Virus record (IMG/VR): IMGVR_UViG_2537562190_000023
Length of the DNA stretch: 20,641 nt
DNA from: a virus
Taxonomy: Duplodnaviria; Heunggongvirae; Uroviricota; Caudoviricetes
Strand: one strand, 5' to 3'
Shown: positions 311 through 18,157 of the stretch, piece by piece
Layout of the letters: each line of letters starts with the position of its first letter
Position numbering within the stretch: the first letter of the stretch is position 1
Made by a program: the position numbers and the translations under genes
The notes under the pieces: model-generated
The model's database searches: none
Told to the model about the DNA's origin: nothing
What the model saw: the letters and a program-made list of their open reading frames with translations, nothing else

Positions 311-526
311 TTACTCTCCCCGCGCCGCCTTACGACGGTCCTCTCTGATTTTGAAATACAGGTTAGTCAGATATGTCAGCAGCCCAAACAGCAGACTCCC
401 CAGCACGCCTATTGCCGCCCACTGAGACGGAGAGACTTTGTCCAGCAGCTGCAGGAACCAGTAGCCCGTTCCCACCGCTGACGTGGTGTATGACACACCT
501 GTTGTGATTTTTTCCATCTGGTACAT
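311..526 (-). CDS. Phage holin, lambdoid S / EssQ-like, 71 aa
   Basis: 71 aa with two hydrophobic segments ([30 protein letters not shown]) and a charged C-terminal tail [13 protein letters not shown], the usual holin layout. Sequence matches my recollection of Stx-phage/Qin-type holins. Sits at the head of the lysis cassette, downstream of Q and nanS-p. Confidence 0.75.
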
Positions 527-601
527 ACCCCGTCTCTCGCAATCCGGAAGCTCACAACAACAGGAGGGGCATCAGCTCACACCGACAGCCCCTGCGCATG
601 G

Positions 602-871
602 TTACATCATCATTTCGCCGTCAGGCTGAGGCTCACTGCTACCGTCAGGCTGAGACACGACGCCATCTGAAACAGCACTGTCACCCGCGCCGTCTTCAGG
701 CTCAGGAGCAGCCGGTCCCCCCAGCAGCTCATCCAGAATGGCATCCACTTCAGCATCAAGACGCGCCTCAAGATTCTGGCGGAGTTGCTGTTTCAGTGCG
801 CTTCTGACTTCTTCAGAGCGCAGGACGTCCTTCACTGCTTCAGCAGTGACCAGAGATTTTATTTCTGACAT
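602..871 (-). CDS. Small acidic protein (about 89 aa) with a Pro/Asp/Gly/Ser-rich C-terminal tail; function unknown
   Basis: ATG at 871 gives MSEIKSLVTAEAVKDVLRSEEVRSALKQQLRQNLEARLDAEVDAILDELL followed by a low-complexity acidic tail. In-frame alternative starts exist at 982 (ATG) and 1027 (GTG), both of which would overlap the upstream gene. SD is weak. Confidence 0.4.
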   Translation of the reverse strand: MSEIKSLVTAEAVKDVLRSEEVRSALKQQLRQNLEARLDAEVDAILDELLGGPAAPEPEDGAGDSAVSDGVVSQPDGSSEPQPDGEMMM

Positions 872-908
872 GGGATTTTCTCGTTGAAAGGTGTTGTTAA
901 GAAAGTTG

Positions 909-1091
909 CTACGAAATGAGAGGCTCTTCGGGTTTTGTTCCGGCTGACTGGCTGGCGCTGATTTTTTCCGCCGCCGCGGCATCAATCTTTTTGCGTATAT
1001 AGTTCCGGATAACCTTATACCCGCCACTTACCAGATATAACGTGCACACCACCGTGCAGAAATACAATAAAATAAGCTGTACAAATCTCAT
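909..1091 (-). CDS. Small membrane protein (59 aa), function unknown
   Basis: ATG at 1091 preceded by a strong SD (GGGAGGG, 4 nt spacer). N-terminal hydrophobic segment FVQLILLYFCTVVCTLYLV followed by a basic, hydrophilic tail. Confidence 0.5.
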   Translation of the reverse strand: MRFVQLILLYFCTVVCTLYLVSGGYKVIRNYIRKKIDAAAAEKISASQSAGTKPEEPLIS

Positions 1092-1238
1092 TATCCCTCC
1101 CGGTTATTGATATGGTGTTGACATCGTTAATACCTGTTGGTTAAAAAAGTGTCCTGCATGTTTTGCTTTGGATATAACGACATTTGCCGCCGGTTCTGGC
1201 TCCTTGTTTTCCCTGCCCCGGCGGCCTTTTTTTCCTGC

Positions 1239-3176
1239 TTACGGGTTATTCACTTCCACTGTTATACTTTCAATCAGCACCGGATATGTCGCACCGCTAG
1301 TGATATCGGTCACGCGCAATTTGTCTGCCGTAAACGTGCCGACCGGTGACTGTGACAGCATGAACGGCGTCCCGTCCTTACCATCAATGACCGGCGTCAC
1401 CTCAATACTGTTGTTACCGGCAAAACGGAAGCCCAGCGTATGCCATTCGTTATCAAATGCGCCGAATGACCCCAGCTTCGTGTTCTGACCAGCATTTCCC
1501 TTGTGGTACATCACATTAAGGTCTGTGGCATCGCTCTGTACGTAAAACGACGCCAGCAGGTTATGACCGGCATTACCTTCCAGTGTGACGCCCTGAGGCA
1601 GTGAAGAAACCGGCCAGTACAGCGCCAGTGCGTACTGATTAGCTGTCAGTGTGCCATCAACTTTAAAACGACAACTGATAAGCCCGCCCTTCTCCAGCAG
1701 GTCTGCGCCATTACCGGCATCATGCTGCATAAACCACGAGGAACTTCCTGTCTGTTTGGTCCACCTCAGCGCCTTACCTCCTGCAGCACCTGCATCATCA
1801 ACTACCAATGCACGCCCTCCTTCAGCTCCCCATCCCTGCGGATTCAGTAAACCACCTGACTCTGTTGCACGGTAATAAAGCAGCGTTGTCACTGATTTCC
1901 CGTCCGTTGACGGTGTTGATGGTGTGTCCGGTGACGGCTTCTCATCCGGCGGCATCACAACCTGTTCCCCACCCTCCAGTTCAGCCGTCCGTCCTGCATG
2001 GAGAAGAATCGCTGAGGCAAGACGGTCAGAAATAATCCCCCTGCGTGCCCATGAGCTGAAATGGCTCGCACGGTCTGCTGACGTCCAGTTTGCCGACGTC
2101 CGGGAGGCCGCACCGTAATATCCTGATGCCGGAATATCCGGGTCTTCTTCCGGTTTGTTCGTCGGGACATTTGCTCCGTTCTCATCGGTCATGAACGGCA
2201 CAAAGTGAATATTCTTTTCCGTTTTGTTTTTGTAACTGCCGTACACCGTCTGGTAAGTGGATTCGCTCTTCTGCTTCCAGAAATAAGTTGTGTCTCCACA
2301 TATCCAGGGAACACCGTCAGCAGAACCACCAGCGCACTGTCCCACCATATCTGCAAGGTCCGTACGATATTGTTCCACTACTTCTGTAAAACGGGCTGTG
2401 TGATTTGCTGGCGTTCCGTCAAAGTCAAATTCCCCCTGCATCCACACCACGGCAAGCAGCACATTTTTCGGGTTCTTTGCCAGCGCGGCTTTTGTACGAC
2501 CGATGAGATCCTTATACAGCGGCCTGCCCACACCCCAGCGGGTAGAACTCTCTGAGGCACCGGTCACGTCACTGTATGTTCCATCTGCCCCGGTGGTGAA
2601 AGCTGAACCACCACGGCAGCACGGAACCAGAAGAATACCCGCATTCGCCGGTATAAACGGCAGCAGCTTTTTGGCAATATGCAGCCCCTGCCCCACGGTT
2701 CCGTACTGACCTTTCGACAGGTCAGCTTTCGGATGGTTAAGACGGCTCATGTCCTGTACATCATGCAGACAGTGGTCTGCCGGAATAATGTCGTTATATT
2801 TACAGGGAGCGCCATCCGGCGTCACTGTGCTGCGACGAGCCAGTTGCTTTATACGCGGGTCAGGACGGTCATATGTCTGCGGCAGAGGAAGCCCCTCACC
2901 GTAAGCCATGCCGTTCGACTGCCCGGCCAGTGGAATAACGTAGTAATAATCTGGCTCCGTGGTGACCACTCCCGGATAGCCACCATCCCCCGTGCCGGGC
3001 ACAACCACTGGCGTGGTCACATCCCCCTCCGCGGCAATCGCCTGCATCAGGGTATAAGGGGTTATGGCCACCGGACTACCAAACGGCTGCCAGCCCTCTT
3101 TCAGTTTGTGTGTCAGCTTTTCCGCAAGATCTGACGGCGACGCCGCCCTGACAACATCATAATGTTTAATCGACAT
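1239..3176 (-). CDS. nanS: Prophage sialate O-acetylesterase of the NanS-p type (DUF1737 N-terminus, SGNH/SASA esterase core, C-terminal lectin-like domain), 645 aa
   Basis: Long ORF with ATG at 3176 and SD GGGAGAAA. N-terminus MSIKHYDVVRAASPSDLAEKLTHKLKEGWQPFG is DUF1737-like. The esterase motif PLAGQSNGMAYGEG (GQSN block) is present. Size and position (downstream of Q, upstream of holin) match the NanS-p esterases of Stx and related lambdoid phages. Confidence 0.8.
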   Translation of the reverse strand: MSIKHYDVVRAASPSDLAEKLTHKLKEGWQPFGSPVAITPYTLMQAIAAEGDVTTPVVVPGTGDGGYPGVVTTEPDYYYVIPLAGQSNGMAYGEGLPLPQTYDRPDPRIKQLARRSTVTPDGAPCKYNDIIPADHCLHDVQDMSRLNHPKADLSKGQYGTVGQGLHIAKKLLPFIPANAGILLVPCCRGGSAFTTGADGTYSDVTGASESSTRWGVGRPLYKDLIGRTKAALAKNPKNVLLAVVWMQGEFDFDGTPANHTARFTEVVEQYRTDLADMVGQCAGGSADGVPWICGDTTYFWKQKSESTYQTVYGSYKNKTEKNIHFVPFMTDENGANVPTNKPEEDPDIPASGYYGAASRTSANWTSADRASHFSSWARRGIISDRLASAILLHAGRTAELEGGEQVVMPPDEKPSPDTPSTPSTDGKSVTTLLYYRATESGGLLNPQGWGAEGGRALVVDDAGAAGGKALRWTKQTGSSSWFMQHDAGNGADLLEKGGLISCRFKVDGTLTANQYALALYWPVSSLPQGVTLEGNAGHNLLASFYVQSDATDLNVMYHKGNAGQNTKLGSFGAFDNEWHTLGFRFAGNNSIEVTPVIDGKDGTPFMLSQSPVGTFTADKLRVTDITSGATYPVLIESITVEVNNP

Positions 3177-3262
3177 CGAATTTCTCCCGTGTACAGGAAC
3201 AGAGTTAAAAAGCCGGAACCGGAATCAAATCACAGGATGACCATCTGCCAGTGGCTGGTCGT

Positions 3263-3291
3263 AAAAAAAAGGCCGCGCCATGCGCAGCCGG
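3263..3291 (-). terminator. Rho-independent terminator (minus strand) about 90 bp upstream of nanS-p
   Basis: GC-rich hairpin GGCTGCGC/GCGCGGCC (8 bp with one G-U pair) at 3271-3291, followed on the minus strand by a U8 run (plus-strand A8 at 3263-3270). Confidence 0.45.
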
Positions 3292-3653
3292 AAATAAAGG
3301 GATAACGATGATAGTTTGAGAAAAACAGAAATAACACTTTTGTGGCAAAGCATGGTGCCGGGTGCCTCCCGGTGAATTCAGTACCAGCACCTGAATCCGC
3401 GATTATCCCATATACCTGGTTGCTGATTGCCCCTCCGCACAGGGGGATTCACCATGCAGTAGTATTTTTAATAAACAGTAAACAAAAAAATCAAGCATTA
3501 TGCAGGCTGTTTCTTTTTATCACCGGCCACAGCAATACCACAATGCCGCAGACCAGCCCCCATCCGCCAGCACCGACATGATTCTGCTGGTGAAATCCAC
3601 CATCACCACCAGAAACAGCAGGAGTGCAGCCACAGCCAGGCGCAGTTTTACCG

Positions 3654-4046
3654 TCACAGGTGATTCTCCAGACGAAGCCCCAGAACACCGGCAATCTCTT
3701 CCAGCACCTTGCGCTCTTCCGGCTCAATTTCGCCGTCTGCCTCCGCAATGGCCACCGCCACATCCAGCACATCTTCCGCTTCACGCGTATCGCGTTTCAC
3801 ATCCTCGATCTCACGTAACGCCGCACGACGACCAATTTTAAAGTTCGTATCCAGCTGACCGATAATGGTTGCGCTAATCGCATTAATTTCTGACGTAAAC
3901 GCGGACAGCGCTGGCTGATTACGCAGTACCTGTTCGATCTTCGCTTTCTAGGAAGCCTCACATTCACCATTTGCACAGGCCACCAGGTATGCGGCGTTAA
4001 TCACCGCCTGTGCCAGATCGCGTTTCTCAAACTTTCCTTTTTCCGG
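3654..4046 (-). pseudogene. TerB-like domain ORF with no start codon and an in-frame amber stop; probable pseudogene
   Basis: Minus-strand frame reads ...KRDLAQAVINAAYLVACANGECEAS*KAKIEQVLRNQPALSAFTSEINAISATIIGQLDTNFKIGRRAALREIEDVKRDTREAEDVLDVAVAIAEADGEIEPEERKVLEEIAGVLGLRLENHL. The TAG is at 3948-3950. No ATG/GTG/TTG lies between the upstream stop (4047-4049) and the TAG. The C-terminal DGEI...EE...L..IA..LGL pattern resembles TerB/DjlA-N-type domains (from memory). Confidence 0.4.
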
Positions 4047-4147
4047 TTAACGTGACACACCAATAACTCTTGTCGAAAAAGCCAGCAAGCTGAAAGACCG
4101 GTATTCACAACCACCAGCGCGTTTACTGTACTGGCGTGATTTCAGTC

Positions 4148-4173
4148 ATAAAAAAACCCGCCTGGCGACGGGT
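4148..4173 (-). terminator. tR'-like rho-independent terminator about 80 bp downstream of the Q-like gene
   Basis: Minus-strand RNA forms CCCGUC-GCCA-GGCGGG (6-bp stem, tetraloop) followed by U7 (plus-strand A-run 4149-4155). Confidence 0.5.
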
Positions 4174-4220
4174 GTAAAAAATCTTCTAACGTCAGGCATA
4201 AAACGCCCATCGTTAGGGCA

Positions 4221-4248
4221 AATTTACCACAGATTCGGGAAAAATCAA
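4221..4248 (-). promoter_or_regulatory. Candidate late promoter (pR'-like) immediately downstream of the Q-like gene
   Basis: Minus-strand TTGATT (-35, plus 4243-4248), 16-bp spacer, TAAATT (-10, plus 4221-4226). Together with the terminator at 4148-4173 it would give a transcript of about 65 nt, analogous to the lambda pR'/6S RNA/tR' unit. Confidence 0.35.
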
Positions 4249-4253
4249 CAAAG

Positions 4254-5075
4254 CTATCTGGTCACCTTTTTCAGTTGTTGTTCTGCCCATGCTTCTTCAA
4301 TATCAAACTGCACCACCAGCGTATCGTAAAAACGTTTAACTGTTTTTTTCCATGTATCAAGAGATATGGCATCGGTTACATTACATATGGCATTAAATGC
4401 CTCCGTTGAAGGTAATCTTTCATAGCCACGACCACCACAACGCTGGCAGTCTCTGATAACAGGCATACCACGTTTTACCGACTCTTCACGATGAATGGCA
4501 ACACCGCGCCCACGACAATCTTTACAGGCGGTGGAAACCTCCCCCTTCCCTCCACACTCCGGACAGGCAACTTTTACCACCTCCCTGACTTTTTTCCATT
4601 CCTCCCAGTAAGACGGATACACGCCTTTTGTGCACTTTGCCCACACTGGCGGCTTACCATCCGGATACTGGATCTTGTTTGTAAAAACCTCGCTTTCAAT
4701 AAATTTTTTTCCGTGACAACAGGGGCACTGTTTTTTGCTCGCCGCGCTACGGGCATAATCTTCAAACGCATACGAAGCCATAATACGCATCACTGCCGGT
4801 TTTATTTCTGCCGGGAGTTTTCTTAACGCCGCCACGCGATCACACCGACTGAGTGCATATTCTGTCAGCAATTCTGTTGCCCGCTCTCTGTCATTCATAC
4901 TAATGCCCATTTTCCCAAGGAACGCAGAAAACCCCATCTCAGCCCAATTCTGTGTCATGCCCTGCGCGGCCATCACATCAGTGATACTCAGCGTATCTTT
5001 CGACGTTGAGGCCGATGCATCAGTCAGGCCGGGGGATTTTGGGGAGTAGTATTTCGGTAAATCTTCCAGTTTCAT
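4254..5075 (-). CDS. Late-gene antitermination protein Q-like (large, zinc-finger-containing type), 273 aa
   Basis: ATG at 5075 overlaps the rusA stop (ATGA). Contains CxxC clusters (CPCCHGKK, CPECGGKG, CKDCRGRG, CQRCGGRG). Position directly after rusA and directly before a promoter/terminator pair and the lysis region matches Q of lambdoid phages (QuuQ / phage-82-like size class). The Q call rests mainly on position. Confidence 0.55.
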   Translation of the reverse strand: MKLEDLPKYYSPKSPGLTDASASTSKDTLSITDVMAAQGMTQNWAEMGFSAFLGKMGISMNDRERATELLTEYALSRCDRVAALRKLPAEIKPAVMRIMASYAFEDYARSAASKKQCPCCHGKKFIESEVFTNKIQYPDGKPPVWAKCTKGVYPSYWEEWKKVREVVKVACPECGGKGEVSTACKDCRGRGVAIHREESVKRGMPVIRDCQRCGGRGYERLPSTEAFNAICNVTDAISLDTWKKTVKRFYDTLVVQFDIEEAWAEQQLKKVTR

Positions 5076-5446: not shown

Positions 5447-6507
5447 CAGTAACCTCTTTTACCCGAGCACGCCGGTTGCAAAGGCGTGATCAAGAAAACG
5501 AAAATTAAATCAACCTGGGAACCATGCTTTTCTTCGAACGCCAGCGGATCCGCATGAAGCTCGTTGTGATGCTCCCGACACAGCGGTAGCGTGAAAATAT
5601 CGTGGGATTTTGTTCCCATTCCGCCCTGACCATGACCAATCAGATGATGAGGATCGTCCGCTGGCTTACCACAACACGCACACGGCTGTGTCTTTACCCA
5701 GCGTGTGTATTTCTCATTTACCCAGCGGCGACGTTTAGGTCGTTTCATGAAGGATTCCGGAGACTCCGGATCAACGGCAATGCTGACCACCGTCTTTTCC
5801 TGTGGTGGGTTCTGTTGCTGGTGGGTGTGAGGCGGTAGCGCAATATTTTTTGTGCGCTGCTTCAGTATGCTGGTGGCGGTCTGCTCTCCCGGTACGATGT
5901 CGCTTTCGCGGTACAAGGAGCGGATTTTTTCCACACGTAACCCCAGAGAACGACGTAATACGGCCTCCGGTAGCGCGTCCGCCACCTGATTGCAGACCGC
6001 CCACCAGGATAATTCAGCCAGAGATAATTCACGCTCCTGCGTACCGCTTATTGCGTGACCGATGACGTCAATCATCCATGCTGACAGGTTTTGATGAGCA
6101 AGTTGCTCGAGTGATTCGGATGTCTGGTCCCGTAGCTGGTTGTCGCAGTGCCAGCACAACACCATTGCGCCGGTACCATAACGGTGAATGACAGTTTCGC
6201 TGTGGTGATAATCGCCGTGTGGCCACTGGCAGGATTTAATATGGCGCAACAGCCAGTCAGACAATGCACCAGCACCACCAGCAGCACGAATCACTCGTTC
6301 GTCGCTGAAAAATGGCAGCAATGTTTTGTCTTCCACCAGCGGCTGGCGAACGGCAGGAACGACCCCGGACGGCAGATTACGCATGCTTTTCGGTTCCGGC
6401 TCCACCAGTACCCGGGTATTGTGAAATACCTGCATGGATTCACGACCTGGCTTAAGGACCACCAGCCCGAGTTCCGGTACCAGAACAGGTCGAAGTAATA
6501 CCCGCAC
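5446..6507 (-). CDS. DUF968-type prophage protein (YdfU-like) with a C-terminal HNH-like Cys/His motif
   Basis: 353 aa. C-terminal region KRPKRRRWVNEKYTRWVKTQPCACCGKPADDPHHLIGHGQGGMGTKSHDIFTLPLCREHHNELH matches the DUF968/HNH-like pattern. Start lies 1 bp after the upstream stop. Confidence 0.6.
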   Translation of the reverse strand: MRVLLRPVLVPELGLVVLKPGRESMQVFHNTRVLVEPEPKSMRNLPSGVVPAVRQPLVEDKTLLPFFSDERVIRAAGGAGALSDWLLRHIKSCQWPHGDYHHSETVIHRYGTGAMVLCWHCDNQLRDQTSESLEQLAHQNLSAWMIDVIGHAISGTQERELSLAELSWWAVCNQVADALPEAVLRRSLGLRVEKIRSLYRESDIVPGEQTATSILKQRTKNIALPPHTHQQQNPPQEKTVVSIAVDPESPESFMKRPKRRRWVNEKYTRWVKTQPCACCGKPADDPHHLIGHGQGGMGTKSHDIFTLPLCREHHNELHADPLAFEEKHGSQVDLIFVFLITPLQPACSGKRGY

Positions 6508-6508
6508 G

Positions 6509-6787
6509 TTACCTCCAGATCCGTTGCTGGAATGTGCGGGACGGACGCGGTGGGCGTTCGGAGTAAGGAAGCCTGACGGAGATTATCCAGTGACGATAAT
6601 CGAGGCTGAGGGCTTTCCTAAACTCATACCCACGTCTGCGGTAGTTCTGAATCAGCCATTCGGCCTGTTCTTCAGTGCATGGGTCGTGCCGGAACCAGTC
6701 AGATTTGAATGCATGAGAACGCCGCCCGTGCCTGCTGGCAAAGACGGCTGAATTATCAGAATTGTGTAGTCTGGAATTTTGCGCCAT
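6509..6787 (-). CDS. Hypothetical protein, 92 aa
   Basis: ATG at 6787 with SD GGAGAAAG. It is the first gene of a tightly coupled run (this ORF, DUF968, rusA, Q). Confidence 0.45.
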   Translation of the reverse strand: MAQNSRLHNSDNSAVFASRHGRRSHAFKSDWFRHDPCTEEQAEWLIQNYRRRGYEFRKALSLDYRHWIISVRLPYSERPPRPSRTFQQRIWR

Positions 6788-6853
6788 CGGCTTTCTCCGG
6801 TGGCACAGTGTTACTCAACAGGGGTTCAGCCCTGCGCTGAATTGTAGATGAAT

Positions 6854-7114
6854 TCACTCATCTTCAAAAGCAGAAAAACCAGCCTTAATCCCAGCGTCTT
6901 TCAGAGACGGCAACGATGTGACAAATTCATTTGCACGCAAAATAAAACCATCCGTCACAAGCCCATCCACAAAATGAATTAACGCAGCTCCACTCTTCCT
7001 TTGTTGAGACTGTAAACATTTAATACGGCAGTGGCTGACAATAGCGCCATTCTCAACGCGCACAGTATAGAGGCCATCTTCACTAAAAATTTCACGTAAT
7101 TCTTCGATTTTCAT
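6854..7114 (-). CDS. Hypothetical protein, 86 aa (position matches rem of Qin-type prophages)
   Basis: ATG at 7114 (MKIEELREIF...) with SD GGAAGGA. Lies between the hok locus and the DUF968 gene, as in the hokD-rem-ydfU order of Qin as I recall it. Confidence 0.5.
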   Translation of the reverse strand: MKIEELREIFSEDGLYTVRVENGAIVSHCRIKCLQSQQRKSGAALIHFVDGLVTDGFILRANEFVTSLPSLKDAGIKAGFSAFEDE

Positions 7115-7230
7115 CAACAGAATCCTTCCAGATAAATAGCACTCCCCTGTTCGGGGTCCATCCCTCTTCTCCCTGCGCGCTACTTAAGTATTTTTGATTC
7201 TATTCCGGCGCCGTCCGGAACTTCAAACGC

Positions 7231-7266
7231 GTTGAAAATAAAAACAAAAACCCGCCGAAGCGGGTT
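7231..7266 (-). terminator. Rho-independent terminator at the 3' end of the hok mRNA
   Basis: Minus-strand hairpin AACCCGC-UUCG-GCGGGUU (7-bp stem, plus 7249-7266) followed by UUUUUGUUUUUAUUUU (plus-strand A-run 7231-7248). Confidence 0.55.
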
Positions 7267-7334
7267 AAGTGCGGGTGCGTTGAGGATGCCTGACACATCA
7301 GAGGTGGCGAGGGATTTCTCCCCCGCCTGGTCTC

Positions 7335-7490
7335 TTACTCCTCAGGTTCGTAAGCTGTGAAGACAGCGACCTCCGTCTGGCCGGTTCGGATTCGTACCTC
7401 GCAGAGGTCTTTCCTCGTTACCAGTGCCGTCACTATGACGGTTAAACAGATGACGATCAGGGCGATTAACATCGCCTTTTGCTGCTTCAT
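7335..7490 (-). CDS. hok: Hok/Gef-family type I toxin, 51 aa; an in-frame upstream extension to 7547 forms a mok-like leader ORF
   Basis: MKQQKAMLIALIVICLTVIVTALVTRKDLCEVRIRTGQTEVAVFTAYEPEE is a canonical Hok/RelF-type sequence (single TM helix, conserved Cys, acidic C-terminus). The 70-codon ORF 7335-7547 starts at ATG 7547. Confidence 0.85.
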   Translation of the reverse strand: MKQQKAMLIALIVICLTVIVTALVTRKDLCEVRIRTGQTEVAVFTAYEPEE

Positions 7491-7534
7491 AGCCTGCTTC
7501 TCCTTGACCTTTCGGTCCGTAAGAGGCAATCTAT

Positions 7535-7590
7535 ATGTGACGAGCATATAGGGGCCTCACTTCGATTTATAGTCGGGTGGGGCTTTTATC
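7535..7590 (+). ncRNA. Predicted Sok-like antisense RNA overlapping the mok translation-initiation region
   Basis: Plus-strand TTGACC at 7504-7509 could serve as a -35. A possible terminator hairpin (CCUCAC/GUGGGG with one G-U pair, 7556-7582) is followed by CUUUUAUC. The region is antisense to the mok start at 7547. Boundaries are approximate. Confidence 0.3.
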
Positions 7591-7792
7591 TATCTGCCGT
7601 TGGTGTTCATGCCCGAGGCAGATAGCCTCAAGCACCCGCAGCAATTCTACTTAACTCTGCCGTTACAGCAAGCCGTTTTCGTCCGATATGGGAATTCCCA
7701 TATCGGAATGAATTCAGTTCACCTGGCGAGGCTTAGCGTACAATTTTTTCCGTTTTGTGAGCTGCCCCTACATGCCGCTGGCGCGGCATCCG

Positions 7793-7822
7793 GAAAAAGA
7801 ATCCACGTCCTGAAGGACGTGG
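7793..7822 (-). terminator. Rho-independent terminator directly after the binding-protein gene
   Basis: Perfect hairpin CCACGTCC-TGAA-GGACGTGG (7803-7822), 6 nt after the stop codon, followed on the minus strand by AUUCUUUUUCC. Confidence 0.5.
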
Positions 7823-7828
7823 AGGATG

Positions 7829-8587
7829 TCAAGTGCCTTTCCTGGTCCAGCCATATTTTTTGAATGCAGGCGCCGCTTCATCGGTTTGTAGCCATTCTGC
7901 AAATCGACGGGTTTCATCATTTGCATCCTGACGTACTGTAATGTTCATATCACGCCATATCACGTAGTCTGGCGCTATTTCCACGACATCACCAATTTCT
8001 GGATTACTGGCTGCCCAGTCAGCCCAGGTTATCCAGACATCTGCTTCAGGCTGATTCTCAAGAGCCTTACGTGCAGTTCCGCTATTGGGCGCATATAAAA
8101 TAATATTTTTTCGGATTGCGGCGACAGTTTCTATATTCCCTTTACGTCCGGCAATATCTTCCCAGACGCCAGTGCCTGATGTATTACTGGTACCACCACC
8201 ATCATTAACAATTACGCCAATCCCGGGTCTGGTCAGGTCGTCAATACTCCGGATATTTTTAGGATTACCTTTCTTTACCAGTAAAATACTTTTTCGCAGA
8301 TAAAGAGGCTGAATATCTTTTTCACTGAAGCTGTCTTTATGGTCCCGAATGATAGCCAGAGCAGATTGTTCTGATGCGCCAAACAAGATATCTGCATTTT
8401 TTTTGGCATCTTCATTCCATTTGTTCTGTGGGCCGTAATGAACGTTCACTATAATACCTGTTTTTTCGGCATAAAGTTTGGCTGCATCAAGCAAGGCTGT
8501 ATGCGGGCCACCAGGACCATACAGATTGATATCAGCATAAGCAGCAGAAGACAGGAATATTAAAAAACCTGCCATTATGTTCCTCAT
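7829..8587 (-). CDS. Periplasmic substrate-binding protein of the ModA/AcfC-like family, with signal peptide; orphan (no permease or ATPase partner in the window)
   Basis: 252 aa. N-terminal signal peptide MRNIMAGFLIFLSSAAYA. Sequence pattern fits ModA/TupA/AcfC-type binding proteins as recalled. Strong SD AAAAGGAG. The flanks are visibly AT-rich. Confidence 0.7.
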   Translation of the reverse strand: MRNIMAGFLIFLSSAAYADINLYGPGGPHTALLDAAKLYAEKTGIIVNVHYGPQNKWNEDAKKNADILFGASEQSALAIIRDHKDSFSEKDIQPLYLRKSILLVKKGNPKNIRSIDDLTRPGIGVIVNDGGGTSNTSGTGVWEDIAGRKGNIETVAAIRKNIILYAPNSGTARKALENQPEADVWITWADWAASNPEIGDVVEIAPDYVIWRDMNITVRQDANDETRRFAEWLQTDEAAPAFKKYGWTRKGT

Positions 8588-8719
8588 AAAAAACTCCTTT
8601 TATTGGTTATCATGAAATAAAGTTATAAACACTACAAATAATATATATTACATCCAGATAAACTTATCCGACTTTACCTCGTGCATAGCTTGTTATTTAA
8701 AGTTAACAAAATAAGGAAA

Positions 8720-8779
8720 ATTATACGCATATTGAAGAGTATAAACCTTACATGTTGATTACATTTTTGTAATCAACAT
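8720..8779 (-). promoter_or_regulatory. Promoter of the binding-protein gene: perfect -10 plus an upstream palindromic operator
   Basis: Minus-strand TATAAT (plus 8720-8725) about 130 nt upstream of the ATG. Inverted repeat ATGTTGATTACA-TTTT-TGTAATCAACAT (12-bp arms, 8752-8779) overlaps the -35 position. Confidence 0.4.
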
Positions 8780-9446
8780 CCTGTTTGGAATAGCCAGCCT
8801 TTAATGGATAACTATTTCTGACAATGCAATGAGTATAATCAAGTCCATCTTCCACTGAGAATTAGAGGCGGCATGCTTTTTCCGACTCTTGCCGGATATC
8901 CGTAATTGTCCATAATCTGCAGATTTATACCTTCAGCATGACCTGCCAGCGAAAATTTGTCCGGTGTTTCTACGGAAATAACATCAAAAGTTACACGCAC
9001 TCGCGTTACCGTGTAGACCTACTTTCCTGCACTTGCAAGATCACAGTGGTGTAACCGTAACAGGAATTTATTCTCTGGACCGGCAGTAAATCCCTGAGTG
9101 GCGTGGTTCCCATATCAATTTCCAGCCAGGCAGCCTCCATTGCCAGCGTACTGGCTGGAGCCATGACCTGCCCTTTAAATCTGGCCCGACCATCCCACCG
9201 GACGTGTTCTTCTCCCCTGAACTTAGGTACAGTCATCTCCAGTGGCACAAAAGTGTCAGCGCCATGATTTTTGACCGTTATCGCGCTACGGATATTTTGT
9301 TGACTGGTGAAAATTACCCCGCAGAATCAGGCTTATTCCCTTAACCCGGGCTTTCATCCTGACCGCCGCCTCACTACGACCAATCAGACTGCCGATGCAT
9401 TTTACCTTCATTGTTAGTATCATAATTTCAGGCCTGCACCATCCGC

Positions 9447-10193
9447 TCATTGCCCGGACTTCCGACAAATCCCGGCAACCATATCTCGGTGCTTGTTCAG
9501 CTCCCGCAGCGCGGCGCAGACTCGCTCCCACTTCTGGACATGACTTTTCGCCCGACGCAATTCGCGGTTTGCCATATGCAGCGATGGTAAAACCAGGTCA
9601 TCCGCTCGCGTTTCAGTAAACGATGGCAACGATTGCACAATATCAGCCACAGTTTCTGTTTTAATATCTTCCTGTGTTGCAGCTTCCTGTACTGGTAACG
9701 CAACACCTGCTGACTGAGGAAAGGCTTTACCATCATTTTCCGTTACCGGCACGGATTTCGGCTCTGCTGGTAACTTATCGCCCGGCATGCAGTAACGAAA
9801 TTTACCGTTCTGGTTTACACGAATCAGACGACCTTTGCTGATTGCCATTGCCAGCGTTGAAGCCACTTTGCGTGATGTTGTACCGAACAACGTAGCCAGC
9901 TCATCAGCCGTTTGTGGTCCGCGTTGTTCAACCGTCGCAGTTAAATCGCACTCCGAAATTTTAGCGACTGTTGCCGTGGTGGTTTCTTCCGACAGTTCTG
10001 CCGGCGCTGGCTGTTCCTGCTGAACGTTGTTATAAGCCACACGCCAGGTGTATACGCTTTTATCAACGAAGCCAGCCTTTCTCAGTTCCCACAGCTCGTT
10101 CAGCACTTCTTCACGACTGATATCAAGTCGCGCAGCCAGCTCTACCGACGTGGCTTTTCCCATCGCTTTCAGTGCGTCAAAAACAGTCTCCAT
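9447..10193 (-). CDS. Hypothetical prophage protein with two winged-helix-like segments, 248 aa
   Basis: ATG at 10193 with strong SD GGGAGGAAA. Two HTH-like stretches ([30 protein letters not shown] and [33 protein letters not shown]). Lies directly after the replication genes. Confidence 0.6.
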
Positions 10194-10225
10194 AAATTTC
10201 CTCCCGGTAAAAATTACTTCTCAAA

Positions 10226-10891
10226 TCAGACAAACCCAGCCGCTTTCCGGCGTTCATATTCCTGTTTCAGCAACTCAATTGGCGTTGGTCCCGCAGGACG
10301 TTTGGGTGCTGCCAGTTGTCGCCGGACAGGCGGAACACTCAGGCCGTTGCTAACATGCTTTGCCCATTTCGTCAGCTGCCGTTCTGCAAGCCGTTTTAAC
10401 TCCCCTTCGGTCATCTGGCGTTCAATCCCCTTTGAACGCATCTCGAGGCAAATGTGATACAGCACAGGCTGAGACCACGGGTACTTATCACTTCCGTCGT
10501 ATCGCCAGGACTCATTGCGCCAGCGGCGGTACTCCTCCATCACAGCATCCACCGTCAGACCAAATGGATTGGCCCCGCTTTCCGAAATCAGCGCCACAAA
10601 CTCAGCCAGGTCCGGAGGCCATGTTTCACCCGCCCGGCAGCAGTCCATGCACTGGCGGCAGACCTGCCGGATTTGCTGCTCAGTCATCGCGCCAATCTGT
10701 GCAATCCAGAGCTTCGAAGGTGCGGCCCCGTTCTTCTGGGTCCAGCGGTTCGAATAAACCTCCCCCATGAGCTCCCACAGCTTCCAGGCCGTTTCCGTCG
10801 CTGATAAATCCGTTTTCACGTTCCCACTGCTCACGTGCTGCCCGAATTTCCTGAACTGCCCGTGATGCGGTTCCACCTGGTGCTGCTGCAT
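10226..10891 (-). CDS. Replication protein P-like (DnaB helicase loader)
   Basis: Similarity to lambda P as recalled (YPW motif, ELKRLAERQL, VPPVRRQL blocks). ATG at 10891 has SD AGGGGG, but this start overlaps the 3' end of the initiator gene by about 210 nt. An alternative coupled start at 10687 (ATGACTGA) would give 153 aa. Confidence 0.6.
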   Translation of the reverse strand: MQQHQVEPHHGQFRKFGQHVSSGNVKTDLSATETAWKLWELMGEVYSNRWTQKNGAAPSKLWIAQIGAMTEQQIRQVCRQCMDCCRAGETWPPDLAEFVALISESGANPFGLTVDAVMEEYRRWRNESWRYDGSDKYPWSQPVLYHICLEMRSKGIERQMTEGELKRLAERQLTKWAKHVSNGLSVPPVRRQLAAPKRPAGPTPIELLKQEYERRKAAGFV

Positions 10892-12454: not shown

Positions 12455-12530
12455 ATCGAGCTCCTTAGATTTTCCTAAGGAAACTAGATCGTAGAGAAAC
12501 CTAAGTCAAGAAAAATTAGAATTCCCTAAT
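12455..12530. promoter_or_regulatory. OR-like divergent promoter/operator region between the Cro-like gene and the repressor
   Basis: Inverted repeat CCTTAG-N6-CTAAGG at 12463-12480. The 15-bp element GTAGAGAAACCTAAG at 12491-12505 overlaps a minus-strand -35 TTGACT. Plus-strand -10 TAGAAT at 12517-12522 places the start site at the repressor ATG (leaderless, no SD). Confidence 0.5.
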
Positions 12531-15272: not shown

Positions 15273-16874
15273 ATGAACGCTGATAAAGAAGAAATTGCAC
15301 TATATTACGAAGCCAAAAATGACAAAGTCAGAAAACGCCTTGGGATTAAAGGTGGTTTTTACTGGCGCACAGCAAAAAAATTATCGGTTGCAATATCACG
15401 TGGTGTTGCTGCAATGGACGATGCCGGATTTGACGAAGAGGATTTTAAAAAACCCATCCGCGTCCATTTACCCGTTGTGAATGACCTTCCACCGGAAGGT
15501 GTGTTTGATACTGAATTCTGCAACCGATACGAAAAAGGCGGAGAAGATGGTATCACAATGATACTTATCGCGCCCTCTGTTCCGGACAAACCAGCCAGTA
15601 CTGACAATACCAACGTCAACGGCGAAGACATGGCTAAGATTGAGGAGAATATGCTTCTTCCGGTTTCAGGTCAGATTCTGCCTGTTCGCTGGCTGGCGCA
15701 ACACAACAGCGAAAAACCGCTCACGCACGTTTCACTGGACAAACTGCGCGCATTACATAACGCACAGGATGAAAAACTTCCCGCCGTTACCGCGCTGGCC
15801 ATCTCAAATAAAGCAGTGCAACTCGAACCGCTGGAGCTTCGGGATTTGTACAAACTGGTGCGAGACACTGACAAAGTTTTCCCCGCCCCCGTAAATTCGG
15901 ACCTGGGACTGATGACCTCTTTTATCGAAGCATACCTGGGCGCTGACTACACCGATCGCGGTCTGCTTACAAAAGAGTGGATGAAAGGAAATCGTGTTTC
16001 ACGCATCAGCCGCACGCCATCCGGCGCTAACGCTGGCGGCGGCATTCTTACCGATCGCGGCGAAGGTTTTGTCCACGATGATGCGTCAGTGGCGCGTGAC
16101 GTAGCCACTGGCGTACTGGCCCGTTCAATGGACGTGGATATTTATAACCTTCATCCCGCGCACGCTAAACGCATTGAGGAAATTATCGCTGAAAATAAAC
16201 CGCCATTTTCTGTGTTTTTCAGCAAATTCATCACCATGCCGGGCCACAAGGATTACTCCCGCGCCATCGTGGTTGCGTCCGTGAAAGAAGCACCAATTGG
16301 TATAGAGGCTACTCCCCACCGTGTCACCGAATACCTGAATAAGGTGCTGACTGAAACCGATCATGCCACCCCTGATCCGGAAATCGTGGATATTGCCTGT
16401 GGTCGCTCCTCTGCCCCGATGCCGCAGCGTGTAACAAAAGAAGGAAAACAGGATGATGAAGAAAAACCGCAGCCATCTGGCGCAATGGCAGATGAACAGG
16501 CAACGACTGAAGCAGTGGAACCGGATACAACTGAACATAATCAGGACACGCAGTCGATGGATGCTCAGCCACAGATAAATTCTGTTGATGCGAAATATCA
16601 GAAACTGCGTGCAGAACTCCATGAAGCCAAGAAAAACATTCCACCCAAAAATCCTGTCGATGCAGATAAATTACTGGCTGCTTCTCGAGGAGAATTTGTT
16701 GAAGGGATTAGCGACCCGAATGATCCAAAATGGGTGAAGGGGATCCAGAGTCGCGATGATGATGACCAGAATCAGGATAAAGCGGAACAAAACAGCCCAA
16801 ATGCGTTACAAAACGAGCCAAAAACAAAACAACCTGAACCGCCCCGGGTTTCCTGGAGAGTGTTTTATCTGTGA
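15273..16874 (+). pseudogene. RecE-like protein, N-terminal fragment truncated by IS629 insertion (last 13 codons and stop are IS-derived)
   Basis: ATG at 15273 with SD GAGG. Long stretches resemble the N-terminal region of Rac RecE as recalled (for example [80 protein letters not shown]). The frame enters the IS at 16835 and stops at 16872-16874. Confidence 0.8.
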
Positions 16875-16876
16875 AC

Positions 16877-17764
16877 TCAGGCTGCCAGATCATCGTTTCC
16901 GATGGAAGCATAATAAGCTTTTTCTGCTTCTGCCGGGGGAGTATGGCCCAGCCTTTCCAGCAATCGTCGATTGTTATACCAGTCCACCCACGTGAGTGTG
17001 GCCAGTTCCACTTCTGCACGGTTTTTCCAGCTCTTACGGTGTATTACCTCCGCTTTGTAAAGACCATTGATGCTCTCCGCCATCGCGTTGTCATACGAGT
17101 CGCCAGTACTCCCTGTTGATGCCAGTAATCCGGCTTCCTTAAGCCGCTGCGTGTAGGCCAGCGATACATACTGAGAACCTTTATCACTGTGATGGATTGT
17201 GCCGGACGGCCGACGGGCCCACAACGCCTGCTCCAGTGCATCCAGCACGAATGTTGTTTCCATGGATGATGAGACCTGCCATCCCACGATGTATCCGGCG
17301 AACACATCAATGATGAACGCCACATAAACGAAGCCCTGCCATGTGCTTACCCAGGTAAAATCAGCCACCCACAACTGGTCTGGACGTTCTGCCACGAACT
17401 GACGGTTTACGCGGTCGCATGCGGCAACGGCTTTCCGGCTGACGGTAGTGCGGACCTTTTTACCCCGGAGAACACCGGCAAGTCCCATAACCGCCATGAG
17501 ACGTGCCACAGTGCATCTGGCCACTCTGATACCTTCCCGTAACAACTGACGCCAGACTTTACGCACACCGTATACCTTGTGATTTTCATCGTATACGCGC
17601 TGTATCTCTTTCTTCAGCCAGTCATCGCGCTGCGCACGGGCACTGCGTTTATCCGGATAATGTCGCTGTTGCTGACAGTGGTAATACGTTGACGGGGCAA
17701 TATGCAGTTCGCTGCATACCGGTCCGACCCCGTACTGCTCACGCAGCTTATCCAGCAGTGGCAT
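16877..17764 (-). CDS. IS629 transposase OrfB (DDE catalytic domain)
   Basis: 295 aa beginning [29 protein letters not shown] and ending ASIGNDDLAA, matching IS629 OrfB as recalled. ATG overlaps the orfA stop (TAATG). Confidence 0.9.
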   Translation of the reverse strand: MPLLDKLREQYGVGPVCSELHIAPSTYYHCQQQRHYPDKRSARAQRDDWLKKEIQRVYDENHKVYGVRKVWRQLLREGIRVARCTVARLMAVMGLAGVLRGKKVRTTVSRKAVAACDRVNRQFVAERPDQLWVADFTWVSTWQGFVYVAFIIDVFAGYIVGWQVSSSMETTFVLDALEQALWARRPSGTIHHSDKGSQYVSLAYTQRLKEAGLLASTGSTGDSYDNAMAESINGLYKAEVIHRKSWKNRAEVELATLTWVDWYNNRRLLERLGHTPPAEAEKAYYASIGNDDLAA

Positions 17765-18090
17765 TATTTTTTCCAGAGGCGGTCGAACTCCGCCTTCGCA
17801 AAATAAGCGGAAGCCTGGCGAAGGATATCGTTACTGCGGCGCAGTTCACGATTTTCACGTTCCAGCTCTTTCAGACGCTGACGTTCAGCGGTGGTGAGTC
17901 CACCATCACCACTCCCGGTATCCCGCTCATGCTGGCGAACCCAGACACGCAGAGTCTCCGGCGTACAGCCAATCTTTGGGGCAATGGAACAAATTGCCGC
18001 CCACTGTGAGTCATATTCATCCTGACTTTCCAGAACCATACGAATCGCCCGCTGACGGACTTCGGGGGAAAAACGAGTATTTTTAGTCAT
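17764..18090 (-). CDS. IS629 transposase OrfA (HTH / leucine-zipper part)
   Basis: 108 aa [59 protein letters not shown]..., matching IS629 OrfA as recalled. An A6 run sits at the orfA/orfB junction, where IS3-family -1 frameshifting occurs. Confidence 0.9.
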
Positions 18091-18157
18091 CCTGTTTACC
18101 TCTTTCTCAGGGAGTTTAGTCTCCAGGATTTCCGGGGCGGTTCAACCTGAACCAGTA

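Follow-up and report, generated by a model that had tools for sequence, protein, structure and literature searches.

The transporter-less binding-protein gene of a lambdoid prophage is paa/adfO, preceded by a conserved and putatively regulatory element

The periplasmic binding-protein gene carried by the 20,641-nt stretch of viral DNA analysed here (IMG/VR record IMGVR_UViG_2537562190_000023, hereafter the window) is now recognized as paa/adfO, a previously named and studied EHEC virulence gene of the prophage CP-933O/PPompW. The gene already serves as a marker of virulence and risk in EHEC, EPEC and porcine ETEC. Very probably, paa is a lysogenic-conversion moron of this ompW-integrated lambdoid prophage, composed of a regulatory region, a Sec-exported protein of the AcfC/PEB3 type and a terminator, whose product is regulated and acts without a transporter. 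The gene's identity, its anatomy, its foreign origin and the orphan status of the whole family are the established parts of this explanation. The remaining steps are proposed: a module of ~1 kb and low GC, lying between hok and the replication genes and oriented like the early-right operon, would be transcribed in the lysogen by means of its own promoter, where a perfect -10 is combined with the lack of a -35; this promoter would depend on, or be modulated by, a host-encoded regulator, which would bind ATTACA-N4-TGTAAT-N6-GTAAGG at about -60 to -33; and Paa would act in the periplasm or at the surface via ligand binding, with no dedicated permease. Since the gene already has a name in the literature, finding it in the window is a rediscovery of a known virulence gene and adds nothing by itself. 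The value of the analysis is modest and comes from two points. First, the question of the orphan transporter component is answered, as the lack of a partner characterizes the family as a whole. Second, a conserved cis-element narrows the 12-bp palindromic operator of the preliminary description and offers a handle on the regulator of paa and on the timing of colonisation-factor production.

The coding sequence (positions 7829-8587, minus strand) specifies 252 aa, with a type I signal peptide at residues 1-18 followed by an SBP_bac_11 domain, and the RefSeq name of the product is "AcfC family adhesin Paa". The domain match (PF13531) scores 120 bits (E 1.6e-34), and among solved structures the protein matches, over its full length, C. 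jejuni PEB3 (E 4e-82, residues 11-248) and V. cholerae AcfC (E 1.5e-81), at ~50% identity. This full-length similarity to both PEB3 and AcfC, together with the SBP_bac_11 domain, places the protein in their family. Weak PDB matches extend to SubI and Sbp, and the NCBIfam models for molybdate and sulfate binding proteins give 18-23 bits against cut-offs of 62-470. The signal peptide reads MRNIMAGFLIFLSSAAYA/D and is laid out as MRN, a hydrophobic core and AYA/D; alignments to the mature PEB3 chains 2hxw and 3fj7 begin at Paa residue 19, in line with cleavage at this site. The signal peptide has no Cys, so Paa is not a lipoprotein, and by its N terminus it is a predicted Sec-exported protein. 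The view of the preliminary description that the locus encodes a ModA/AcfC-like binding protein with a signal peptide is thus borne out.

At the sequence level, the match to known Paa/AdfO is 99-100% for the protein (P0001) and 98.9-99.9% for the DNA of the corresponding prophages, a figure that also covers the flanks, fimbrial pseudogene and hok/ckf. The prophage of E. coli 2011C-4251, where RefSeq annotates paa, is 99.9% identical, and window positions 7600-9000 are present, over at least 80% of their length, in 577 of 5426 complete E. coli genomes. Other names of paa are adfO, z2053 and ECs1772; the gene belongs to prophage CP-933O, or O-island 57, inserted in ompW, where its companion is always ckf, a hok-type gene (PMC8565820, PMC9729726, PMC7667037). 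Adherence to HeLa cells is poor in an adfO mutant (PMC8565820, PMC9729726), which matches the earlier guess that the gene is a lysogenic-conversion or colonisation factor. The preliminary description was therefore essentially right in its reading, and what it overlooked is that the gene had been named and studied.

The setting of paa is that of foreign cargo in a lambdoid prophage. From integrase and exonuclease the gene order runs through dicB, dicA/dicC-type immunity and the O/P-type replication genes to a DUF1627 gene, the fimbrial pseudogene, paa and hokD, and on to rem, DUF968, rusA and Q. The window is collinear with the RefSeq prophage of E. coli 2011C-4251 (99.8-100% identical) except for one IS, an IS3-family element that the window copy has in addition, in the exonuclease gene ~8 kb from paa. 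In three phage genomes that are syntenic on both sides of the slot (Rac MN652886, vB_EcoS-666R9 and pPE4), the position between the DUF1627/ydaW gene and hok holds lygF, Ead/Ea22-like and other small ORFs and no paa. Moreover, GC is 0.34-0.42 across 8100-9100 versus 0.51-0.59 in the flanking phage genes. The presence of other genes at the same slot in syntenic phages, together with this drop in GC, makes paa a genuine moron by these criteria, inserted between the replication region and hok as first proposed, and the suggested comparison of syntenic prophages with and without the gene has thereby been made. The moron concept was defined on lambdoid phages, for example on bor and lom of lambda. 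Like such phage morons, paa is one gene that sits between essential phage genes and is equipped with a terminator and, putatively, its own promoter; it deviates in base composition, is missing from syntenic relatives and is of benefit to the lysogen. Unlike them, the paa module also circulates on IncF-type plasmids and has carried a fimbrial gene fragment along. In addition, OI-57-like prophages that have ckf but lack paa exist (PMC9729726).

The module, from the promoter to a second hairpin beyond the terminator, spans 7758-8790 (minus strand) and is 86-89% identical to E. coli plasmid alleles, whose settings are unrelated, for example beside an IncFII replicon and the STa toxin gene, or beside a glycerol dehydrogenase gene. 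Next to it, the fimbrial subunit pseudogene (8789-9281, minus strand) is cut ~38 nt short of its natural stop where it meets the paa module. Among the IMG/VR contigs with the palindrome discussed below, 44 of 51 contain the fimbrial pseudogene, paa and hok as a block at 97% identity or more, and the same block is also found in the 577 E. coli genomes counted above and in PPompW prophages; it is one clonal arrangement.

No permease or ATPase is annotated in the window or in the near-identical RefSeq prophage. A conventional ABC importer locus of the ModABC/CysPUWA type can be rejected, as there is no operon with permease and ATPase genes and the NCBIfam equivalog scores fall far below their cut-offs. 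Paa thus shares with the molybdate- and sulfate-binding class its Pfam family and the weak NCBIfam and PDB (SubI/Sbp) matches, but differs from it in having no partner of the modBC or cysUWA type. To place this in a family context, the neighbourhoods of eight homologues with 53-87% identity were inspected. Seven of them have no adjoining permease or ATPase: those in Edwardsiella, a V. cholerae-type TCP island, Campylobacter, E. albertii (where the homologue is located inside the aga sugar locus), a Salmonella IncFII plasmid, Raoultella and Citrobacter. The eighth, from Enterobacter bugandensis, is preceded at a distance of ~690 nt by a PhnT2/PhnU2-like ABC operon, which encodes a binding protein of its own. 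The missing transporter partner is a trait of the whole AcfC/PEB3/Paa family. As the homologues elsewhere also lack a cognate permease or ATPase, paa is not the remnant of a transporter; the preliminary description, which had judged a conventional importer unlikely, had named cognate transporter genes adjacent in related prophages as the finding that would overturn its reading, and none was seen in the RefSeq prophage or beside the eight homologues.

The same neighbourhoods bear on the best-surviving alternative, namely that Paa is a conventional binding protein working in trans. An ABC permease/ATPase encoded in the chromosome would then receive a small anion from Paa, either a sulfate-like ion or a phosphorylated metabolite, and the colonisation phenotype would be nutritional rather than adhesive. 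We regard this as unlikely. Molybdate and sulfate binding proteins belong to the same fold family, PEB3 is listed with 3-phosphoglycerate and phosphoenolpyruvate as ligands (PMC8835900), and the Enterobacter homologue is indeed near an ABC operon, all of which would suit a role in uptake. However, the other seven contexts are devoid of adjacent permease and ATPase genes, the Enterobacter operon comes with its own binding protein at some distance from the homologue, and AcfC influences chemotaxis towards mucin rather than nutrient uptake (PMC5976639).

The preferred reading, in which Paa acts without a transporter, draws on what is known of its two closest structural relatives. PEB3 (PDB 2hxw, 3fir, 3fjg, 3fj7) resembles Paa in its SNTSGTGVWED motif, equal length, signal peptide and lack of an adjoining transporter. 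In the alignment, the PEB3 sequon, which we take to be DFNVS, corresponds to DSFSEK in Paa. PEB3 itself is an N-glycoprotein (PMC5976639). AcfC (PDB 4jb7), encoded in VPI-1, is like Paa a horizontally acquired colonisation factor without a transporter partner. It is 47% identical to Paa, is periplasmic and is not an adhesin in cell assays (PMC5976639), and it is listed in the literature as a binder of sulfated glycans. According to the literature, homologues of Paa bind small anions, which for PEB3 are the two phosphorylated metabolites named above, and the lack of a transporter partner is compatible with these PEB3 ligands (PMC8835900). A contribution to adherence or colonisation is reported on the basis of the adfO mutant (PMC8565820) and for AcfC (PMC5976639), the latter described as linked to chemotaxis and not as an adhesin. 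The two genes differ in their transcriptional setting: acfC is in an operon downstream of acfB, which is under ToxR/ToxT control (PMC5976639), whereas paa is monocistronic with a regulatory motif of its own.

Upstream of paa, several elements noted in the preliminary description are readily located. A strong Shine-Dalgarno sequence, AGGAG (8594-8598, minus strand), lies 6 nt 5' of the ATG at 8587, and the surrounding AAAAGGAG is kept in the E. coli plasmid alleles. The consensus -10 hexamer TATAAT (8720-8725, minus strand) is invariant in four E. coli alleles; transcription would start ~7 nt past it, near 8713, leaving a predicted 5'UTR of ~126 nt. This leader folds no better than shuffled sequences (z -0.55), and an Rfam search of it returned nothing, with only the sok/hok element next door. 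No -35 accompanies the -10, as the best hexamers at 16-18 nt from TATAAT match TTGACA at 1/6 positions, and a consensus promoter scan did not call the paa promoter because the -35 is missing. The searchable part of an EDL933 start-site supplement has no entry for paa. As to a promoter of its own, the module therefore offers a TATAAT at a fixed distance from a conserved motif, but neither a -35 nor a match in the scan.

The palindrome of the prophage allele (8752-8779) is a perfect 12+4+12 inverted repeat, ATGTTGATTACA-N4-TGTAATCAACAT, with 100% complementary arms; shuffled sequences gave 0 matches in 100, even with 3 mismatches allowed. Relative to the start predicted above, it would extend from about -66 to -39 with its centre at -52.5, so that it probably abuts the -35 position from upstream and does not lie on it. 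Hence the palindrome is as perfect as the preliminary description had it, but it is not at the -35 position, and conservation is limited to the inner 6 bp per arm, the outer 6 bp being specific to this allele.

This last point emerged from an alignment of 19 distinct upstream sequences, drawn from the window, from three plasmids and from metagenome contigs with genes for Paa relatives. ATTACA-N4-TGTAAT is present in 14 of the 19, at 168-238 nt before the ATG. In the window, this core inverted repeat, ATTACA-AAAA-TGTAAT (8758-8773, minus strand), would occupy about -60 to -45 and is a putative regulator site. It is followed, after six variable bases, by a third half-site, GTAAGG (8746-8751, minus strand), at about -38 to -33 and thus over the -35 position. 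This third half-site, as GTAAGG(TT), is found in 13 of the 14 motif-bearing sequences, including the divergent L133, L138 and L146, while L130 has GTCAGC in its place; its GTAA forms a direct repeat at an 11-nt period. Furthermore, each of the 14 has a -10-like hexamer (TATAAT, TATGAT or TACACT) at 48-49 nt, counted from where the core starts. The proteins of these motif-bearing alleles range from 100 to 69% identity and include L130 (87%), L133 (86%), L146 (85%) and L138 (69%). In these four the DNA upstream of the gene has no other relation to the window, and similarity sets in precisely where the core begins on its left. Complementarity of the outer six arm bases is confined to the prophage allele; elsewhere the arms shrink to 10, 9 and 6 bp with no compensatory changes, and the inner 6 bp are kept. 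Since the core bases are conserved and the outer stem is lost uncompensated, selection acts on base identity and not on a hairpin. The asymmetric three-half-site arrangement argues for a putative protein binding site rather than a structural or recombination role, and a promoter that pairs a perfect -10 with a conserved site at about -60 to -33, and has no -35, looks activator-dependent, repression being the less likely alternative.

One may argue instead that the palindrome is a recombination or mobility scar at the 5' edge of the module, or a structural DNA or RNA hairpin, and not the site of a regulator. Its position would fit, as conservation with the plasmid alleles begins within ~10 nt of the palindrome and with the remote alleles exactly at it, and as RNA it folds at -14.4 kcal/mol (z -4.7). 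On the other hand, conservation is confined to the 6-bp core, with the outer stem lost as described, and the direct-repeat third half-site and the -10-like hexamer are held at fixed distances, so we consider this explanation improbable, more so than uptake in trans. The palindrome has no U-run on either strand and is thus not a terminator. The hairpins at the 3' end of the module are unrelated to it, and a search for integron attC or IS200/IS605-type ends that might account for the sharp module borders found no matching end motifs.

The element, which we prefer to read as a regulatory site, does not always accompany the coding sequence: alleles from E. albertii and from the Salmonella plasmid, with 84-87% protein identity, have a different upstream region from which the motif is absent. 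Given such different upstream regions among alleles, regulatory cassette and coding sequence have been reassorted. Searching the literature for the motif sequence strings brought up no paper, and ATTACA-N4-TGTAAT-N6-GTAAGG is possibly the only new detail of a feature that is otherwise already known.

What might bind this element? As stated in the preliminary description, the regulator is not encoded nearby, as nothing in the window resembles a regulator of paa; no regulator gene was seen within 1.5 kb of the divergent paa alleles, and the literature searched names no regulator of paa. The prophage repressor and Cro are poor candidates, since the immunity operators at 12455-12530 are CCTAAG/CTTAGG repeats of the DicA/DicC type, unlike the palindrome, and the window holds no other good copy of the palindrome half-site. 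A regulon search with the palindrome over 185,579 species genomes gave 45 matches, which are spread across unrelated taxa and never lie beside paa DNA, against a rough chance expectation of ~17 at equal base frequencies and more in AT-rich DNA. Similarly, in IMG/VR motif searches all matches outside paa prophages (7 and 5 loci) were on unrelated contigs, so that neither species-representative genomes nor viral contigs yielded a second copy of any significance.

Comparison with known sites yielded resemblances of varying quality. The EvgA box, which we take to be the 18-bp inverted repeat TTCYTACA-N2-TGTARGAA, is visible in the evgA-emrK intergenic region as TTCTTACG-CC-TGTAGGAT, and the paa half-sites have the same polarity and match it at 6 of 8 bases. 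However, the 4-bp spacing found in all 14 motif-bearing alleles, versus the 2 bp required, means that the paa site is not an EvgA box. An EvgS-like kinase and a NarL-type regulator do adjoin the Enterobacter homologue, which is a lead only, because that allele lacks the motif. Other leads, all presumptive, are the resemblance of the motif to what we take to be OmpR/PhoB-type direct repeats at an 11-bp period, the LysR-type T-N11-A dyad and the TGTTA repeats of ArcA. The resemblance to the GATAAT repeats of Fur is faint, and qRT-PCR in a fur mutant found z2053 not to be regulated (PMC4382993). The homology check proposed in the preliminary description has thus succeeded for the protein, which is the known Paa, and not for the palindrome, which is unmatched among the known factor sites compared (Fur, EvgA and prophage operators). 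As a plausible though tentative reading, the tripartite site may be the operator of a chromosomally encoded enterobacterial regulator of the NarL/FixJ, OmpR/PhoB or LysR type, with Paa switched on by a host or growth-phase signal and the cassette swapped between alleles independently of the coding sequence.

Regarding growth phase, the ECs1772 transcript in uninduced culture dips and then rises more than 4-fold on entering (early) stationary phase (PMC2241611), data that show at least expression from the lysogen. It is very improbable that paa has no functional promoter and is expressed solely by read-through of the early-right operon after induction, as its orientation with the O/P-type replication genes and Q and its lack of a -35 element might suggest, because the upstream region with the invariant TATAAT accompanies paa on plasmids that have no phage operon, the transcript varies with growth phase in the absence of induction (PMC2241611), and the promoter-like spacing is kept in divergent alleles.

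With its own regulatory region, as we would read it, the module also ends in a terminator of its own. The intrinsic terminator (7792-7823, minus strand) consists of a G+C-rich stem of 9-10 bp and a T-run, and starts 5 nt past the TGA stop, where the preliminary description had indicated a hairpin terminator; the stem occupies 7802-7823 and is followed by TTCTTTTTCC. A second hairpin, ATGCCGC-GCCA-GCGGCAT (7772-7789, minus strand), has no T-run, and together the two hairpins fold at -32.4 kcal/mol (z -3.3). As paa is co-oriented with the early-right operon, its terminators sit between the replication genes and Q. Among the plasmid alleles, the stem of the second hairpin is invariant and its loop variable; one of them (L004) carries a single compensatory change from C:G to T:A in the terminator hairpin, and in another the terminator hairpin is partly deleted and the second hairpin retained.

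Homologues of paa, the gene for an AcfC/PEB3-type periplasmic binding protein, are also found in other genomic settings. In Enterobacter bugandensis (locus L009), the homologue has gene clusters on both sides (313-4313 and 6421-10739): a PhnT2/PhnU2-like ABC transporter operon on one side, and a 1197-aa EvgS-like hybrid sensor kinase with a NarL/FixJ-type response regulator on the opposite side. The ATTACA-N4-TGTAAT motif, a putative regulator binding site upstream of paa alleles, is absent from this allele. A chromosomal homologue in E. albertii (87% identity; L016 4001-4762) lies within the N-acetylgalactosamine/tagatose (aga/kba) PTS gene cluster, and its upstream region is unrelated.

In the window, a fimbrial subunit pseudogene with a frameshift and an internal stop (8789-9281) lies upstream of paa. 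E. coli EC195 has an intact chaperone-usher fimbrial gene to which it is 87.6% identical, and it breaks off about 38 nt short of the stop of that gene. Together with an ORF downstream of a divergent paa allele (L133 3204-3753), which, read by eye from the sequence, we take to encode a FimB/FimE-like recombinase, this pseudogene hints that paa once resided beside a fimbrial operon.

The paa coding sequence is annotated from the second ATG (747 bp) in GenBank records of PPompW, the ompW-integrated prophages carrying the gene, but from the first (759 bp) in RefSeq, the two versions differing by 8576-8587. The first ATG is favoured as the probable start, both by its distance from the Shine-Dalgarno sequence and by where homologues begin in the alignment.

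Directly 3' of paa, a complete hok/sok-type toxin-antitoxin locus is confirmed, since 7488-7637 on the minus strand matches the Rfam family sok (RF01794) with 103.9 bits. Directly upstream of this hok/sok (ckf) locus is a perfect 26-bp palindrome without spacer, TCCGATATGGGAA/TTCCCATATCGGA (7682-7707). The palindrome lies just past 7679/7680, where the window ceases to resemble the phage 933W hokW locus, and the hok locus of a pig E. coli plasmid shares sequence with the window as far as 7728.

Elsewhere, the prophage exonuclease gene is broken by an IS3-family insertion sequence (16841-18142) with minus-strand ORFs at 17764..18090 and 16877..17764. The prophage of strain 2011C-4251 is otherwise 99.96-100% identical to the window, but its exonuclease gene is intact, and it carries an IS copy, 94.6% identical, at another place.
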